Positions 1,689 to 11,974 of a stretch of 15,845 nucleotides of DNA are shown piece after piece. Positions within the stretch are counted from its first letter, which is position 1. Each line of letters opens with the position of its first letter. Under the pieces are notes generated by a model that was not told the origin of the DNA, made no database searches, and saw only the letters and a program-made list of their open reading frames with translations. The translations under genes and the position numbers were made by a program. The stretch lies in IMG/VR virus record IMGVR_UViG_2609459791_000001, positions 1-15,845 of that record; one strand, written 5' to 3'. The DNA is from a virus (lineage: Duplodnaviria; Heunggongvirae; Uroviricota; Caudoviricetes).

Positions 1689-3950
1689 ATGATCAAGTTA
1701 TCTGAAAAAGGCATGTTTCTCGCCAGTAATAACGAAATAATTGCCGAAGAACATTTCACCGGCGAAATTAAAAAAGAAGAAGCCAAAAAAGGCACTATTG
1801 CCTGGTCTATTCTCTCTTCTCATAATACGTCCGGAAATATGGATAAACTTAAAATTAAGTTTGATTCATTAGCCTCTCACGATATTACCTTTGTTGGTAT
1901 TGTACAGACCGCTAAAGCGTCCGGAATGGAACGTTTCCCGCTGCCGTATGTGCTGACCAACTGCCATAACTCACTCTGCGCCGTCGGCGGCACCATTAAC
2001 GGTGATGACCATGTTTTTGGTTTATCGGCAGCTCAGCGTTATGGCGGTATTTTTGTGCCTCCGCATATTGCGGTCATCCATCAATATATGCGTGAGATGA
2101 TGGCAGGCGGCGGCAAAATGATCCTCGGGTCAGACAGCCACACCCGTTACGGTGCATTAGGGACAATGGCAGTCGGTGAGGGCGGCGGTGAGTTGGTAAA
2201 ACAGCTGCTTAATGACACCTGGGATATCGACTATCCGGGAGTTGTTGCGGTGCATCTGACCGGAAAACCAGCGCCGTATGTGGGGCCGCAGGATGTGGCG
2301 CTGGCTATCATCGGTGCCGTGTTCAAAAACGGCTACGTCAAAAACAAAGTGATGGAATTCGTAGGTCCCGGTGTTGCTGCGCTCTCTACCGATTTCCGTA
2401 ACAGCGTTGACGTTATGACCACTGAAACGACCTGTTTAAGTTCTGTCTGGCAAACCGATGAAGAAGTCCATAACTGGCTGGCGCTGCACGGTCGCGGCCA
2501 GGATTACTGCCAGCTTAACCCTCAACCGATGGCGTACTACGATGGCTGCATCAGCGTTGATTTAAGCGCCATCAAACCAATGATTGCGCTGCCGTTCCAC
2601 CCGAGCAACGTGTATGAAATCGACACACTGAACCAGAACCTGACCGACATTCTGCGTGAGATTGAAATTGAGTCCGAACGCGTGGCGCACGGTAAAGCCA
2701 AACTCTCGCTGCTGGATAAAGTGGAAAATGGTCGCCTGAAAGTGCAGCAGGGGATTATCGCGGGCTGTTCTGGCGGTAACTACGAAAACGTCATCGCGGC
2801 GGCGAATGCACTGCGCGGTCAATCCTGTGGCAATGACACCTTCTCGCTGGCAGTTTACCCGTCATCACAGCCGGTGTTTATGGATCTCGCCAAAAAAGGT
2901 GTGGTAGCAGATTTGATTGGCGCAGGCGCAATCATCAGAACCGCGTTCTGCGGCCCATGCTTTGGCGCGGGCGATACGCCAATCAACAACGGATTAAGTA
3001 TTCGCCACACCACGCGCAACTTCCCGAACCGCGAAGGCTCTAAGCCAGCTAATGGGCAGATGTCAGCGGTGGCGTTGATGGACGCTCGTTCTATCGCTGC
3101 GACTGCGGCAAACGGTGGCTATTTAACCTCTGCCAGCGAACTTGATTGCTGGGACAACGTGCCGGAGTACGCCTTCGATGTAACGCCGTATAAAAACCGT
3201 GTTTATCAGGGCTTTGTGAAAGGGGCAACTCAGCAACCGCTGATTTACGGACCGAACATTAAAGACTGGCCGGAATTGGGTGCGCTGACTGACAATATCG
3301 TCCTGAAAGTGTGCTCGAAGATCCTCGACGAAGTGACCACCACCGACGAACTGATTCCTTCCGGTGAAACCTCTTCTTATCGTTCAAATCCGATTGGTCT
3401 GGCGGAGTTTACCCTGTCACGCCGCGATCCCGGTTATGTTGGCAGAAGTAAAGCGACTGCTGAGCTGGAAAATCAGCGTCTGGCGGGGAATGTCAGCGAG
3501 CTGACAGAGGTGTTTGCGCGCATTAAGCAGATTGCTGGTCAGGAGCATATTGATCCGCTGCAAACTGAAATTGGCAGCATGGTATATGCGGTGAAACCAG
3601 GCGATGGTTCTGCGCGTGAACAGGCGGCGAGCTGCCAGCGTGTGATTGGCGGTCTGGCGAATATTGCCGAAGAGTACGCGACTAAACGCTACCGTTCTAA
3701 CGTCATCAACTGGGGGATGTTACCGCTGCAGATGGCGGAAGTGCCAACCTTTGAAGTGGGGGATTACATTTACATCCCTGGCATTAAAGCGGCGCTGGAT
3801 AATCCGGGTACGACGTTTAAAGGTTATGTGATCCATGAAGATGCGCCGGTAACGGAAATTACGCTCTATATGGAAAGTCTGACTGCTGAAGAGCGCGAGA
3901 TTATCAAGGCGGGTAGTTTGATTAACTTCAATAAAAACCGTCAGATGTAA
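1689..3950 (+). CDS. ybhJ: Aconitase-family hydratase/dehydratase (putative)
   Basis: ORF in track begins at 1665, but ATG at 1689 is preceded by GGAG (1679-1682) and gives 753 aa; contains aconitase-like motifs GSDSHT and CGPCFGAG. Confidence 0.88.
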
Positions 3951-3965
3951 AAAGCGCCATGTGAA

Positions 3966-4172
<207 letters not shown>

Positions 4173-4183
4173 GTTAATTGCTC

Positions 4184-5467
4184 TTACTTCTTCGCCTCTG
4201 CAACCACTTTACTACCCACGCCGCGGTTATTGTATTCCCACATGCGGTTGTAGTTAGTGTCATTCAGATTGCGCTGTATTTCGTCGTTATCATCTACGCT
4301 GCCGGTATTACCCGCAAACGGACGATTAGAGATCACCGCATCGGCCCACGGTTTAGCCGTGTTAAAACCTTCGTTGATGGCGCTATCACGGATCACCACC
4401 TGACCGTTGGTATTGGCATCAACATCCAGCGAGCGGCCCAGTTGCGCCACACCATCACCGAAAGCATTGAAACGGCTGTTTACGGCGAGGAAACCGTAGT
4501 AAATGTTGGACAGCGTAGCCGGTGCAAACACATACGCTTCTTGCTGAGTACGTGAGTTCACCACGCGGAATTCGGTGTTATCGAACACCACTGCGCCGCG
4601 ACCAGAAACGATATCCACATCCCCTTCAATGTAGCTGTTGGTCACCAGCGTACGCGGCTGACGATTCGTTTCCAGACGGTTCTGCACACCGCTGTTGGTG
4701 ACAAAGAAGGTGTTCTGACGACCGAGAATGTTAACGTTGTTAATCTGTACCTGGTCACCATCAGTACGCAGTGCCACCGCCGGATGGTTACCTACATCTA
4801 CGCTATCGCCCAGCGTGTTTTCGATGGTCAGATTTTGCAGTTGCAGGCCATTGTTTTGTGACCAGAAGACCGCAGAGCAGAGAACACCGATACTGTCGCT
4901 GCGTTTGCTCTGGCAGCTATCGTACATATACCACGCTGGTTTACCTGGCATATATTTGCCGCGCGGGTTGACGTCGTGACGCCAGTCGGCAGGGCTCATG
5001 CCACCATCAAGGGAAAGCCCAATCTTCACATCAATCGGTTTTTCACCTGTACCGTACAGAGTAATTCCACCCGGAGCGGCAGGGACATATACCGTTCCCT
5101 GATACTCACCAGGCATCACGGCAATATACTGGCGCTTGTTGGTACGCTTGATAATTGCCGCATCTACCGCCGCCTGAATCGTGGTATGCGTTACACCTTG
5201 AGTGCCCGCCGGGCCGACAACAAAGTCAGGTTGCGCAGGCAGGGTAATCGGGGAAGGATTCCACGCTGCAGCACCTGGTGTCAGGGATGCAAAATAGTGT
5301 TGAGCATCGAAATTCTGCGCTTCTTTTGCCGACAGAATCGGGCGAGAAGAGGTACCAGGCGCGGTTTGATCAGAAGGACGTTGATCGGGCGGAGTTGAGC
5401 TACAGGCGGTCAGCGTCACGCCAAAAGCCAATGCCAGCGCCAGACGGGAAACTGAAAATGTGTTCAC
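4184..5467 (-). CDS. ybhC: Outer-membrane lipoprotein, pectin-methylesterase-like family
   Basis: 427-aa ORF; GTG start at 5467 with GGAG upstream; N-terminal signal peptide with lipobox LTAC; pectinesterase-like segments (AVALRTDGDQ, GDVDIVSGRGAVVFDNTEF); last chromosomal gene before the att core. Confidence 0.85.
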   Translation of the reverse strand: MNTFSVSRLALALAFGVTLTACSSTPPDQRPSDQTAPGTSSRPILSAKEAQNFDAQHYFASLTPGAAAWNPSPITLPAQPDFVVGPAGTQGVTHTTIQAAVDAAIIKRTNKRQYIAVMPGEYQGTVYVPAAPGGITLYGTGEKPIDVKIGLSLDGGMSPADWRHDVNPRGKYMPGKPAWYMYDSCQSKRSDSIGVLCSAVFWSQNNGLQLQNLTIENTLGDSVDVGNHPAVALRTDGDQVQINNVNILGRQNTFFVTNSGVQNRLETNRQPRTLVTNSYIEGDVDIVSGRGAVVFDNTEFRVVNSRTQQEAYVFAPATLSNIYYGFLAVNSRFNAFGDGVAQLGRSLDVDANTNGQVVIRDSAINEGFNTAKPWADAVISNRPFAGNTGSVDDNDEIQRNLNDTNYNRMWEYNNRGVGSKVVAEAKK

Positions 5468-5499: not shown

Positions 5500-5601
5500 A
5501 TCCGTTGAAGCCTGCTTTTTTATACTAAGTTGGCATTATAAAAAAGCATTGCTTATCAATTTGTTGCAACGAACAGGTCACTATCAGTCAAAATAAAATC
5601 A
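5500..5601. other. attL: attL (B-O-P') of a lambda-type integrase; 15-bp core GCTTTTTTATACTAA at 5514-5528 followed by the P' arm
   Basis: Exact lambda att core sequence; sequence to the right (gttggcattataaaaaagcattgcttatcaatttgttgcaacgaacaggtcactatcagtcaaaataaaatcattatttgatttc) matches what I remember of the lambda P' arm with arm-type Int sites; int gene immediately adjacent. Confidence 0.9.
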
Positions 5602-6868: not shown

Positions 6869-7084
6869 CGCAAAGTCTCCGCAATTACACGCAAGAAAAA
6901 ACCGCCATCAGGCGGCTTGGTGTTCTTTCAGTTCTTCAATTCGAATATTGGTTACGTCTGCATGTGCTATCTGCGCCCACAGCATCCAGTGGTCATAGCA
7001 GTCGCTGATGTTCTCGGCTTCGATAACTCTGTTGAATGGTTCTCCATTCTATTCACCTGTAACTCGGAAGTGCATTTATCATCG

Positions 7085-7164: not shown

Positions 7165-7446
7165 TTACTTCTTGGCGTTCTGTTCATCCATATCGATATA
7201 CCATGGGTTGCTTCCCTTGGGCATGTTTAACGACTGCTCGCGATAGTATCTGATGCGCTCCATGAAATACTCGCGTGAGTGCTCAGGTTGCTCTCATGAT
7301 ACCTGCTCAGTGATAACAGGTATGTTAAGGCGCTCTCTGTACTCCATGCCTGATGCTGCAAGGTCAACGTTTACCTTGTTCTGTTTTTCTTTCGATTTCT
7401 CGGCGATGTTATGCCTGACATTGTCAACCCGCCTCCTTCTGAACAT
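7165..7446 (-). pseudogene. ea8.5: ea8.5-like reading frame (282 nt) interrupted by one in-frame TGA at codon 51
   Basis: ATG at 7446 (minus) to TAA at 7165-7167 is a single frame of 94 codons with one internal TGA (7294-7296): MFRRRRVDNVRHNIAEKSKEKQNKVNVDLAASGMEYRERLNIPVITEQVS*EQPEHSREYFMERIRYYREQSLNMPKGSNPWYIDMDEQNAKK. Length and distance from xis match where I remember lambda ea8.5 (93 aa). Identity to lambda Ea8.5 is not verified. Confidence 0.4.
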
Positions 7447-7792: not shown

Positions 7793-8368
7793 TCACCCAT
7801 CTTGCTGCGGTGCTACTATTGAAAAGTACTCACACCCTTTAGCCCAAATAGTTTTGATAGTTGTCCAACTGACTGGAACCTTGATTTCGATTCTTCCGCT
7901 GCCGTCACAAGTTTCGCAATCATCATCACCAAAGCATTCCGGGCAGCTTATAAACGTAGTTTCTGAAAATTCACCGGATAGCACACCCTTAGCGCCGTTC
8001 TCAGCGGTTAGTTTCTTCGGCACTATAACCCAACCATCCGGAGTTACCGGAGAGTTGCCATTTATATCGAAGTTTGGCTCTGCGTCCTGAACCAGGAGGA
8101 TGTAACCATTCTTGGCAGTATCAAGTTCTAACGCCTCGGTGACGGTACCGAAATAGCGATTACCTAAATCCGCATCACAAGTGCTTACATCAATGGAAAC
8201 CTCCATGCCTTCGATTAATTCTGGCAAGTTGTAAGTTTGGCTTACAGGTTCTGCTCCCAGTGATGCCAGTGCAATTCGTGCCAGTTCCATTTGTTCGCCA
8301 CGAGTAAGCCCGTTTTCAAGCGGATTTTTAATGAACAATTCAATACGTTCTTTGGTAATAGTGGTCAT
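7793..8368 (-). CDS. Hypothetical phage protein (191 aa) with C-terminal DnaJ-like CxxCxGxG zinc-finger motif
   Basis: ORF with good SD (AAGGA, 8 nt before ATG at 8368); C-terminal CPECFGDDDCETCDGSG gives two CxxC pairs in CxxCxGxG-type spacing; acidic N-terminal two-thirds. No family recognised from memory. Confidence 0.65.
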   Translation of the reverse strand: MTTITKERIELFIKNPLENGLTRGEQMELARIALASLGAEPVSQTYNLPELIEGMEVSIDVSTCDADLGNRYFGTVTEALELDTAKNGYILLVQDAEPNFDINGNSPVTPDGWVIVPKKLTAENGAKGVLSGEFSETTFISCPECFGDDDCETCDGSGRIEIKVPVSWTTIKTIWAKGCEYFSIVAPQQDG

Positions 8369-8597
8369 TTGTTAGTCCTTAAACTGCTAGTTGCAATTGC
8401 ATTTCAAAGCGGTCGCGTTGTTCACAATACGCAAGAGAACCAGGGCTATTGTGTGCCTCAAACTGCAAATACCTTCCAACGAAACGCTCCAGAAATAAAC
8501 GCAAGCCAATCCCAAAAGAATCTGACGTAAAAACCTTCAATTACACAGCTCACCTGTGGGATATCCGGTGGCTAAGATATCGTGCGAGGAAATGACA
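8369..8597. promoter_or_regulatory. Divergent intergenic region between leftward accessory genes and rightward nin-like genes; contains 10-bp perfect palindrome tgcaattgca (8392-8401)
   Basis: Only non-coding stretch separating the leftward and rightward gene blocks; occupies the place where a complete lambdoid phage has its whole early/immunity region. Promoter elements not confidently identified. Confidence 0.3.
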
Positions 8598-8939
8598 ATG
8601 GATTATTCACAGTTAAGTGATTTTGAAATTAACAGAATGGTAGGAGACATAATTTTTAAAGGCCTTTGGGCAAGTAAACCGGAAACATCAGGGAATAACA
8701 CCAACAAATGGTATTACGGAAATGCTGATACAACTTTTGAGCCATTAAATCATTTGCCTGACTACTGCAATGATCCGAGCGCTTCATGGCCGATTATTGA
8801 GAAATACAGGATTTCTATCTTAGACCAGTTAACTGAATGGTGTGTGGATGCAAAAGGCGTAAGCCCAATATTTGATACCAGACCTCTCCGCGCCGCCATG
8901 ATTGTCTTTCTCCTGATGCAGGAGGCCAATAATGCTTAG
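8598..8939 (+). CDS. Hypothetical phage nin-region protein (113 aa; possibly NinX/DUF2591-like)
   Basis: ORF in track starts at GTG 8556; ATG at 8598 lies 7 nt after GAGGA (8586-8590). Family assignment is from weak recollection only. Confidence 0.5.
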
Positions 8940-9020
8940 CCCATCTCAATCCCTTCAATACCTGAAAGGAAGCATAGAGCGGGCTTCAATGTGCACAGAG
9001 TGGATTCTATCTAGGTTTAG

Positions 9021-9149
9021 CGCATACAGAAGATTGCCGGTAAAGGGCATGCCAAGCAAGTCGATGCTGCATATGCAAAAGAATGCGCGCTGGAAGGTAT
9101 GGCGAGAACACAGGTTATCTGGCTGAAAGAGGGGGTTATTAAGGCGTGA
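9021..9149 (+). pseudogene. ybcO: 3' remnant of a ybcO-like (DUF1364) gene, lacking its 5' part
   Basis: Frame ending at TGA 9147-9149 reads ...[30 protein letters not shown], matching the C-terminus of DLP12 YbcO as I remember it, and overlaps the rusA start as in DLP12; in-frame stops at 9012-9014 and 9018-9020 and no start codon mean only about 42 codons remain. The 64-aa track ORF 8932-9126 is a different frame across the same DNA. Confidence 0.5.
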
Positions 9150-10127: not shown

Positions 10128-10292
10128 TACTAAAAGTTATTAAAAATGGGGCGTTGAAACGCCCCCAAAAATAAAGGGTAATATATAACAGAAGGTTTGT
10201 ATAGTTAGAAGCAAGGTTGTGCTTCTAAAGGAAGTGGCTTGAGGGAGCCACTTATATGTTGGGGAGGCAAAGCCTCCCACAACATATCTTTT
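10128..10292. terminator. Cluster of four stem-loops between convergent Q and porin genes (likely porin terminator(s) and Q-dependent late leader / tR-prime equivalents)
   Basis: Hairpins ggggcgttgaaacgcccc (10148-10165; U-run on minus strand), agaagcaaggttgtgcttct, gtggcttgagggagccac, and a long stem atatgttggggaggc-aaa-gcctcccacaacatat (about 10254-10290; followed by cttttag on plus strand). Confidence 0.5.
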
Positions 10293-10302
10293 AGTAATCA
10301 AA

Positions 10303-11385
10303 TTAGAACTGGTAAACCATACCTACAGCAACGATATCATCGGTAGCAACGCCAGATGCTTTCGTGAAATCGCTCTTATCAATCAGGTTGATTTTGTAGT
10401 CAACAAAAGTGGACATATTTTTGTTGAAGTAATAGGTTGCACCTACATCAACATATTCAACCAGGTCCTGATCACCCCAAACACCCAAGTCTTTTCCTTT
10501 AGAATGCAGGTAAGCAACGGATGGACGCAGGCCGAAGTCGAACTGATATTGTGCAACAGCTTCGAAGTTTTGTGCTTTGTTGGCAATATGGTTATTACCA
10601 AAAACAGTCATGTTCTGGGTTTCAGAATAGGTGGTGGCCAGATAGATGTTGTTCGCATCATATTTCAGACCAGCTGCCCATACTTCAGCATTTTGACCAG
10701 AAGCATTCAGACCGTTGTTACCGTAGATAACCTGATTATTAGTGCGATCAGATTTAGCATAGGTTGCACCCACGCCGAATCCTTCATACTCATAAGTAGT
10801 TGAGAAACCGAAACCATCGCCATTAGCTTCAGTTACTTCATTTCGGTCATTTTTGCCCTGATACTGAGCTGCAAAGTTCAGGCCATCAACCAGACCAAAG
10901 AAGTCGTTGTTACGATAAGTTGCAACACCTGTGGTGCGACCAGTCATGAATACATCTGTTTGGGTCCAGGTATCGCCACCGAATTCTGGCAGAACGTCAG
11001 TCCACGCACCGATGTCGTATGCTACACCGTAGTTACGGCCGTAATCGATTGAGCCGTAGTCACCGAATTTCAGGCCTGCAAATGCAAGACGGGTTTTGTC
11101 TTTGGAGGAACCTTGAGATTCAGCGCGGTTGCCTTTGAATTCATATTCCCACTGACCGAAACCAGTCAGTTGATCGTTGATTTGGGTTTCACCTTTGAAG
11201 CCAAGACGGGCATAAGTAGTATCACCATCATCTGCATCATTAGAGGAGAAGTAGTGCTTAGCATTAACTTTCCCGTACAGATCCAGCTTGTTACTGTCTT
11301 TATTATAAATTTCAGCTGCCTGAGCAGACATCGCCATCAGTACTGATGCAGCTACAGCAGAAATTGCCACTGTTAATTTTTTCAT
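10303..11385 (-). CDS. nmpC: Phage-encoded outer-membrane porin, OmpC/OmpF family (Lc / NmpC-like), apparently intact
   Basis: 360-aa ORF with signal peptide [23 protein letters not shown], porin-typical N-terminal AEIYNKD...KLDLYGK and C-terminal ...VAVGMVYQF ending in aromatic residue; located between Q and the lysis genes as in PA-2 and DLP12. Confidence 0.9.
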
Positions 11386-11974
11386 CGTGAGCCCTTTTTT
11401 TTGAACTATTATTAAAAAATGATGTCACTGCGCGATAAATATTCATCTAATCAATGTGATTATTTCAAGATGTAAGTTTTAGTTTCTCGTTTAATTTGTG
11501 AAGTAGATCTCTATTTTTATCTGAACTTTTTTCTATCGAATCCTATTCATGGCTCTTGGCTGAATAAAAATAAATCTATTAGCCAATTTATATTAATGGC
11601 TGTTATTTATAAGTGCTCTATAATTTGAAGGTTCAATTTAAATTGGCTAAAAATAACGCTGGAAATTATTTATTGGTTATTTGTTAAGATTTTCTTATGT
11701 ATTTGTGGTGGAGTTTTGAACACTCGGTAGCATTCTCATAAATATCATTCAGTGGTTTACGTACGTAAAAAATTGGTTATGCTGTTAAGAGTGGTTACTT
11801 CGTCACACAGCTTAAACCCGCCGTCGAGCTGGTTTTTCCATTTTTTGAGTCTCGATATTAGCTGATAACTCAATACCTGAGTTATTCACTGACTCCGAGT
11901 CTGTTACGTTTCTGCTTTTTTGCGATACGTTGTATTCCCTCAATTTACACCCGCTTTGTCTGCGAGGTGGGGTT
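11386..11974. promoter_or_regulatory. AT-rich 590-bp intergenic region: porin promoter/regulatory region and leader of lysis operon
   Basis: Long strongly AT-rich spacer directly upstream of the minus-strand porin start, with no ORF of 60 aa or more in the track; individual promoter elements not resolved. Confidence 0.3.

Follow-up and report, generated by a model that had tools for sequence, protein, structure and literature searches.

The 229-base stretch at positions 8369–8597 of the window (the whole stretch of DNA that was analysed, 15,845 nucleotides) is very probably a scar, left in a lambda-like prophage when illegitimate recombination deleted part of it. As read from the sequence, it consists of two 5′-truncated coding sequences that stand back to back and point apart, with no replacement control region. 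According to the mechanism that we propose, the break would join the inside of a leftward DpdA/TGT-like gene, approximately 26 codons before its stop codon, to codon 14 of the rightward ninE gene. The join would have been made across 2 bp of common sequence (AA, at 8460–8461), and the deletion would have taken out about 11–13 kb. What is left between the 191-aa ORF on the left and ninX on the right is a 10-nt native spacer, then 83 nt from the 3′ end of a dead coding sequence, and lastly a 5′-truncated ninE (ninE′), the apparent TTG start of which is supplied by the junction itself.

A similarity search matched the window at 100% identity to the chromosome of the urine isolate E. coli 20AR0354 (NZ_CM132272.1). 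The PGAP annotation of the window places ybhC and ybhJ at the flanks of the lambda attachment site. The lambda att core GCTTTTTTATACTAA was present as an exact match at 5514–5528 on the plus strand (0 expected by chance), where it represents attL and marks the left end of the prophage. The int and xis genes were 98.5% identical to those of lambda and HK629, and the int/xis arm was 98.6% identical to that of phage ev099. By these marks, the element can be assigned as a lambda-like defective prophage of E. coli that occupies the lambda attachment site beside ybhC. When the window was scanned in full against Rfam, there was a sole match, to the REP-derived nucleoid-associated RNA naRNA4 (4045–4115, plus strand; 60.7 bits versus a gathering score of 59.5). 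This match sits in the host ybhJ-ybhC intergenic region, outside the prophage, and the scan found no structured RNA in the 229-base stretch.

The leftward gene block of the prophage comprises int, xis, two pseudogenes, an 80-aa ORF and the 191-aa ORF, and the rightward block comprises ninE′, ninX, a DUF1364 fragment, rusA, ylcG and quuD (Q). Past quuD, a gene for an OmpC/NmpC-like porin on the opposite strand is followed by essD, rrrD, an Rz-like gene and a Rha-family gene. Neither the PGAP annotation nor the ORF list contained N, cI, cro, cII, O or P in the element, or any repressor or cro gene between the leftward int/xis block and the rightward nin/Q block. The two leftward pseudogenes (6908–7075 and 7165–7446, minus strand) were called by PGAP, and one of them is a homologue of the DNA polymerase III theta subunit (HolE/Hot-like); both have internal stops, which is a further sign of prophage decay. 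In the rightward block, a 64-aa ORF at 8932–9126 matched no Pfam or PHROG family. It overlaps the DUF1364 (ybcO-like) fragment, which PGAP placed at 9060–9149 and which lacks its N-terminus. Lambda_2E9, an intact phage, has this 64-aa ORF in its annotation too, so the arrangement at 8932–9149 is older than the decay of the prophage.

On the right-hand side of the scar, PGAP annotated a NinE family protein of 48 aa (8449–8595, plus strand). From position 8460 onwards, this ORF corresponds to ninE from the last base of codon 14 through the stop codon, and the first 41 nt of the gene with its native ATG are absent. Its TTG start, with the opening three to four codons (8449–8459), is the antisense of the left-hand remnant and not ninE. 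The ORF matched the NinE family (Pfam PF05322; E = 1.2e-32, 111.9 bits versus a cutoff of 25) over profile positions 14–58 of 58, rather than over the full length with a native start codon; the full-length NinE of Lambda_2E9 has 58 aa and ends in ...RYRARK*. Matches to hundreds of lambdoid phages and E. coli prophages started exactly at 8460, and the sequence from 8460 to 8700 was 100% identical to that of many phages. From the same position, the right arm was collinear in one piece with the intact phage ev243 (98.8% identity over 4,469 nt), and in intact phages this collinearity runs from ninE through ninX, rusA, Q and the porin gene to the lysis genes. The first complete rightward gene is ninX (DUF2591; 8598–8939, plus strand; Pfam Phage_P22_NinX, E = 7.4e-17; phrog_444). 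Its start lies 2 nt past the ninE stop, as in intact phages, and Lambda_2E9 has the same arrangement. An assignment of the frame reading ...HLWDIRWLR... to the end of a replication (P) or ninC gene was ruled out by the similarity search and by Pfam, both of which identified it as NinE. Judged by these alignments, the protein that RefSeq lists as a "NinE family protein" in this prophage is the product of a chimeric, 5′-truncated ORF.

On the left-hand side, positions 8379–8461 (minus strand) hold the 3′ remnant of a 251-aa DpdA/queuine-tRNA-ribosyltransferase-like gene, made up of the stop codon, 26 codons and 2 nt, with the 5′ part deleted; the last 26 codons of the gene correspond to 8382–8461. 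The window equals the CREC-2 prophage (locus L002, 4123–4205) up to 8461 and diverges beyond. Identity was 99.5% over 8257–8461, and the flank overall was 99.5–100% identical to the CREC-2 prophage and the Stx1a phage EH2115. The 251-aa parent protein ends in ...FEMQLQLAV* and falls in phrog_887, annotated as queuine tRNA-ribosyltransferase, that is, DpdA/TGT-like (E = 3.3e-101). In relatives, its gene belongs to the early-left operon, where it lies downstream of ead/Ea22, exo, bet, gam, kil and cIII and 10 nt upstream of the homologue of the N-terminal module of the 191-aa ORF. The full gene was found at 4123–4878 of L002 and at 1626–2381 of a second locus (L009). Lambdoid phages of both E. 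coli and Salmonella carry it in their early-left operon, and it is a candidate 7-deazaguanine DNA-modification gene.

The 10 nt between this remnant and the 191-aa ORF (8369–8378, minus strand) were read from the sequence as the native intercistronic spacer, with the ribosome-binding site (AAGGA) of the 191-aa ORF. In CREC-2 and EH2115, the two genes are parted by this spacer as well, and in Salmonella phage S107 it has two differences beside the start codon. The 191-aa ORF (7793–8368, minus strand) is an intact early-left (ea-region) ORF and the first gene of the leftward block. It matched phrog_60 over residues 1–190 (E = 1.4e-41), and its N-terminal 46 codons were 95.7% identical to hkaE of HK620. 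The module formed by the N-terminal 46 aa is found in hkaE and in EaA-type genes, which suggests that the ORF is a mosaic of the ea region rather than a fragment. PGAP called only the first 46 codons (8231–8368), as an incomplete pseudogene, yet the ORF is open. Only PHROGs placed the two left-hand proteins, as the 251-aa parent matched no Pfam or NCBIfam family and the 191-aa ORF no Pfam family.

A three-way alignment of the window with its left parent (CREC-2) and its right parent (Lambda_2E9) placed the deletion junction at 8460–8461, where a 2-bp microhomology (AA) is common to both parents. The junction and both truncations are directly visible. In the similarity searches, the left homology stopped at 8461 and the right homology started at 8460, which makes the breakpoints sharp; of the two genes that are cut, the DpdA-like gene retains only its 3′ end, as detailed above, and ninE lacks its first 13 codons. 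All the features of a cryptic-prophage deletion junction that we looked for were found, namely a sharp breakpoint, truncated genes, lost essential functions and an inherited junction. An 11-nt near-repeat was also observed, with CCTTAAACTGC at 8377–8387 and CCTCAAACTGC at 8456–8466. Since the latter copy spans the deletion joint, the AAACTGC of ninE is also found 79 nt leftward, in the left parent. This near-repeat is probably due to chance, and it represents an alternative microhomology that was left unused. The direct and inverted repeats in 8300–8700 formed no repeat family and were short two-copy chance matches only.

The content of the missing interval could be read directly from relatives. 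We found no single phage with both exact parental flanks, and the deletion was sized instead from ev017 and the CREC-2 prophage, in which the equivalent points lie ∼12.9 kb and ∼11.2 kb apart, respectively. In both, the interval holds the rest of the ea genes, exo/bet/gam, kil, cIII and sieB, and further N, a LexA-family repressor gene (cI), cro, cII, O, P, ren and ninB; that of ev017 also holds a DNA methyltransferase gene. N, cI, cro, cII, O and P provide functions essential for phage growth. In lambda, the early promoters pL and pR lie with their operators in this interval, and since it was deleted, pL, pRM and pR are gone together with their operators. The lack of a repressor, of N, of O/P and of pL and pR would explain why the prophage is defective and non-inducible. 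The preliminary description had regarded the 229-base stretch as a divergent intergenic spacer that stands in place of the immunity region. With respect to position this was right, as N, cI, cro, cII, O and P are located there in intact relatives, and the 191-aa ORF and ninX do diverge from it. However, the stretch is not simply intergenic, because it is occupied by ninE′ and the DpdA-like remnant.

In lambda-type phages Q is transcribed from pR, and in the absence of Q the transcripts from the late promoter of lambda terminate before the lysis genes. If nothing is transcribed from pR, Q would not be made, and the lysis genes would stay essentially silent behind their own late regulatory region, downstream of the opposite-strand porin gene, as in DLP12. 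The porin gene (10303–11385, minus strand) and a 589-bp AT-rich intergenic region (11386–11974) part Q from essD, as in intact phages, and a strong terminator-like hairpin lies by the porin gene (10165–10148, minus strand). The same arrangement is found in the intact phages ev243, ev099 and ev017, which argues that the OmpC/NmpC-like porin gene is a lysogenic-conversion gene native to this position, rather than one brought between Q and the lysis cassette by a rearrangement. With this gene, its terminator and the 589-bp region lying between Q and essD, the lysis cassette would rely on its own late control region and not on the scar. The S-R-Rz operon of DLP12 likewise has its own regulatory region, which is controlled by Q, RpoE and Hha (PMC7918800). 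It had been a concern that expression of Q and the lysis genes without repressor control would oblige the prophage to avoid lethal lysis by another mechanism. This concern disappears if pR went together with the immunity region, as Q is then left without a known promoter. Since the lysis cassette would moreover be under its own control, no extra mechanism against lysis is needed, and this would explain why Q and the lysis genes require no special silencing.

The junction was detected in 1 of 5,426 complete RefSeq E. coli genomes, and one or other of its halves is present in ∼2,200 genomes. The exact chimeric NinE′ protein was indexed in 45 blocks of a public assembly collection, and the scar was present in at least 24 draft-assembly contigs at the lambda attachment site. 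The contigs read, 24 in number, could be grouped into five places, all of which have the same context of ybhJ, ybhC, xis ... ninE′, ninX, rusA, ylcG and Q; int was intact in three of these, split in one (L007) and not called in another (L005). When the five sister loci were aligned, they proved to be 100% identical to the window over 411 nt, junction included. Since the sister sequences are all identical, they are uninformative on selection on the scar. The scar can be regarded as an inherited lineage marker, and its junction sequence would be convenient for this use.

Two of the sister loci showed further changes. In L007 (CP050197.1), the integrase is split into two ORFs of 154 and 141 aa (3155–4224), and the Rz-like lysis gene (10236–10476) was called at just 80 aa, which indicates that decay went on after the shared deletion. 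In L005 (GCA_044021655.1; 9002–11395), which carries the same scar, an IS1380-family transposase (420 aa, ISEcp1-like) is encoded downstream of Q, and the locus also encodes a CTX-M family extended-spectrum beta-lactamase of 291 aa (NCBIfam blaCTX-M, 627 bits versus a cutoff of 570). No porin or lysis genes were called in the returned part of this locus. The presence of the IS1380-family element and blaCTX-M downstream of Q indicates that the cryptic prophage offers blaCTX-M a chromosomal landing site in this lineage.

Conceivably, the joint did not arise from a single internal deletion, but from recombination between two resident prophages or with an incoming phage, which would make it a mosaic, or from successive deletions. 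Lambdoid phages are highly mosaic, the parents of the joint were found in different phages (CREC-2 and the Stx1a phage EH2115 versus Lambda_2E9 and ev243), and no single record with both flanks at 100% identity was identified. However, ev099 carries both a lambda-type int/xis arm and a ninE-ninX-Q-porin arm, which makes a single parent plausible. In addition, the joint lies inside two genes that have only 2 bp in common there, whereas mosaic exchanges usually take place at gene borders. We give a mosaic or multi-step origin a small but real chance, and the product would be the same non-functional scar either way. As regards the activity of this scar, the preliminary description had supposed that the stretch carries the promoters for both gene blocks. 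A sigma-70-like promoter consensus scan of both strands returned 0 sites in 8200–8750 versus 1.2 expected, and a scan of the whole window placed no site in 8369–8597; both cover consensus sites only, with weak, non-canonical or alternative-sigma promoters and read-through from outside beyond their reach. By a rough −35/−10 position-weight score of our own, based on consensus frequencies, the best plus-strand candidate was TTGTTA-17-TGCAAT, at 6.1, and the best minus-strand candidate was TTGAGG-17-TCTCTT, at 5.1. The supposed promoters were thus not borne out: the scans revealed no promoter-like site, and the stretch is a joint of two truncated genes. The junction could still have made or kept a weak chance promoter, giving low constitutive expression of ninX-rusA-Q and/or the 191-aa ORF, with Q too low for lysis. 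Any sequence of ∼44% GC can hold weak promoters, two candidates did receive a score, and both downstream genes keep good ribosome-binding sites. Yet among all 229-bp tiles of the window these candidates rank only at the 38th and 17th percentile, respectively, their scores are attained in 78% and 91% of shuffles, and the consensus scan found fewer sites than expected. Moreover, the equivalent operon of DLP12 is effectively silent until an insertion sequence gives it a promoter, as experiments on rusA suggest that adequate expression of the ybcN-rusA operon needs insertions that provide an active upstream promoter (PMC4118853). A weak promoter at the junction is accordingly unlikely. It is very improbable that such a junction-made promoter and/or a translatable chimeric NinE′ ORF gives low expression of rusA/Q that is kept in the urinary E. 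coli lineage as a host benefit; if this were true, the host could, for example, gain a reserve resolvase for Holliday junctions or a low activity from the lysis cassette. The likeliest reading is that, as in DLP12, neither gene block retains its promoter.

The perfect 10-bp palindrome TGCAATTGCA at 8392–8401 was confirmed, and it is located 24–33 nt upstream of the start codon of the 191-aa ORF. This position had led to the proposal that it is an operator, or another protein-binding site, that controls the 191-aa gene. Against this proposal, the palindrome lies in coding sequence, within the C-terminus ...FEMQLQLAV* of the DpdA-like remnant, where the minus-strand codons (AT)G CAA TTG CA(A) specify M-Q-L-Q. 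A search for additional copies showed that it is the sole exact copy in the window. One-mismatch copies numbered 3 versus 1.27 expected, a count reached by 22 of 200 shuffles, and two of them lie kilobases away, at chance level. Perfect 10-bp palindromes as such occur in the window at chance frequency (16 versus 17.3 ± 4.4 in dinucleotide-preserving shuffles), and when the 229-bp region is shuffled, at least one turns up in 19% of cases. In S107, the orthologue of the DpdA-like gene is ∼88% identical in DNA and reads TGCAGTTGCA at this site. The synonymous change from TTG to CTG breaks the dyad and leaves the peptide MQLQLAV* unchanged, which argues that the constraint is on the protein and not on DNA symmetry; the comparison with S107 thus gave no conservation of the dyad as DNA independent of coding constraint, and it largely refutes an operator. 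In intact relatives, the palindrome is located inside an operon, in the last codons of the upstream gene and 10 nt before the next cistron, and an operator would not be expected at such a position. There is also no promoter overlapping the palindrome and no repressor gene nearby. Since CAA followed by TTG is self-complementary, a Gln-Leu-Gln run easily yields a palindrome. Taken together, an operator is extremely improbable; the palindrome is best explained as a by-product of coding and should not be annotated as an operator. None of the features of an immunity region that we looked for was present in the stretch, be it cI or cro genes, a dyad operator array, sigma-70 promoters on each strand or a dyad conserved as DNA. 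We infer that the scar carries no dedicated promoter or operator, and its importance is small beyond correct annotation.

When compared with known systems, the scar resembles the lambda immunity region (OL/pL-N ... cI-OR/pRM/pR-cro) in position only, as the place where the leftward and rightward early genes diverge. Unlike that region, it has no repressor gene, cro, repeated dyad operator array or promoter consensus, and consists of dead coding DNA. The right arm is 95–99% identical to and collinear with that of the intact Jouyvirus-type phages ev243, ev099, ev017 and Lambda_2E9, which have the order ninE-ninX-rusA-ylcG-Q-porin-holin-lysozyme in common. In contrast to these phages, 11–13 kb of recombination, immunity and replication genes are missing here between the two arms. 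The closest studied parallel is DLP12 of E. coli K-12, a cryptic lambdoid prophage with the gene order ybcN-ninE-ybcO-rusA-ylcG-quuD-nmpC-essD-rrrD-rzpD. Each is a defective lambdoid prophage that no longer has its immunity and replication region. Each retains the nin/rusA/Q genes as a promoterless block, and in each a porin gene sits after Q, ahead of an S-R-Rz lysis cassette that has a regulatory region of its own; the resemblance extends to the PGAP gene names rusA, ylcG, quuD, essD and rrrD. The two differ in that the present prophage occupies the lambda attachment site by ybhC, whereas DLP12 is integrated at argU. They also differ in that the present prophage has a clean two-gene junction from the DpdA-like 3′ end to ninE codon 14, and ninX with a truncated ninE where DLP12 has ybcN with a full ninE. 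The scar represents a well-known kind of prophage decay, and the genes involved are already annotated in RefSeq.
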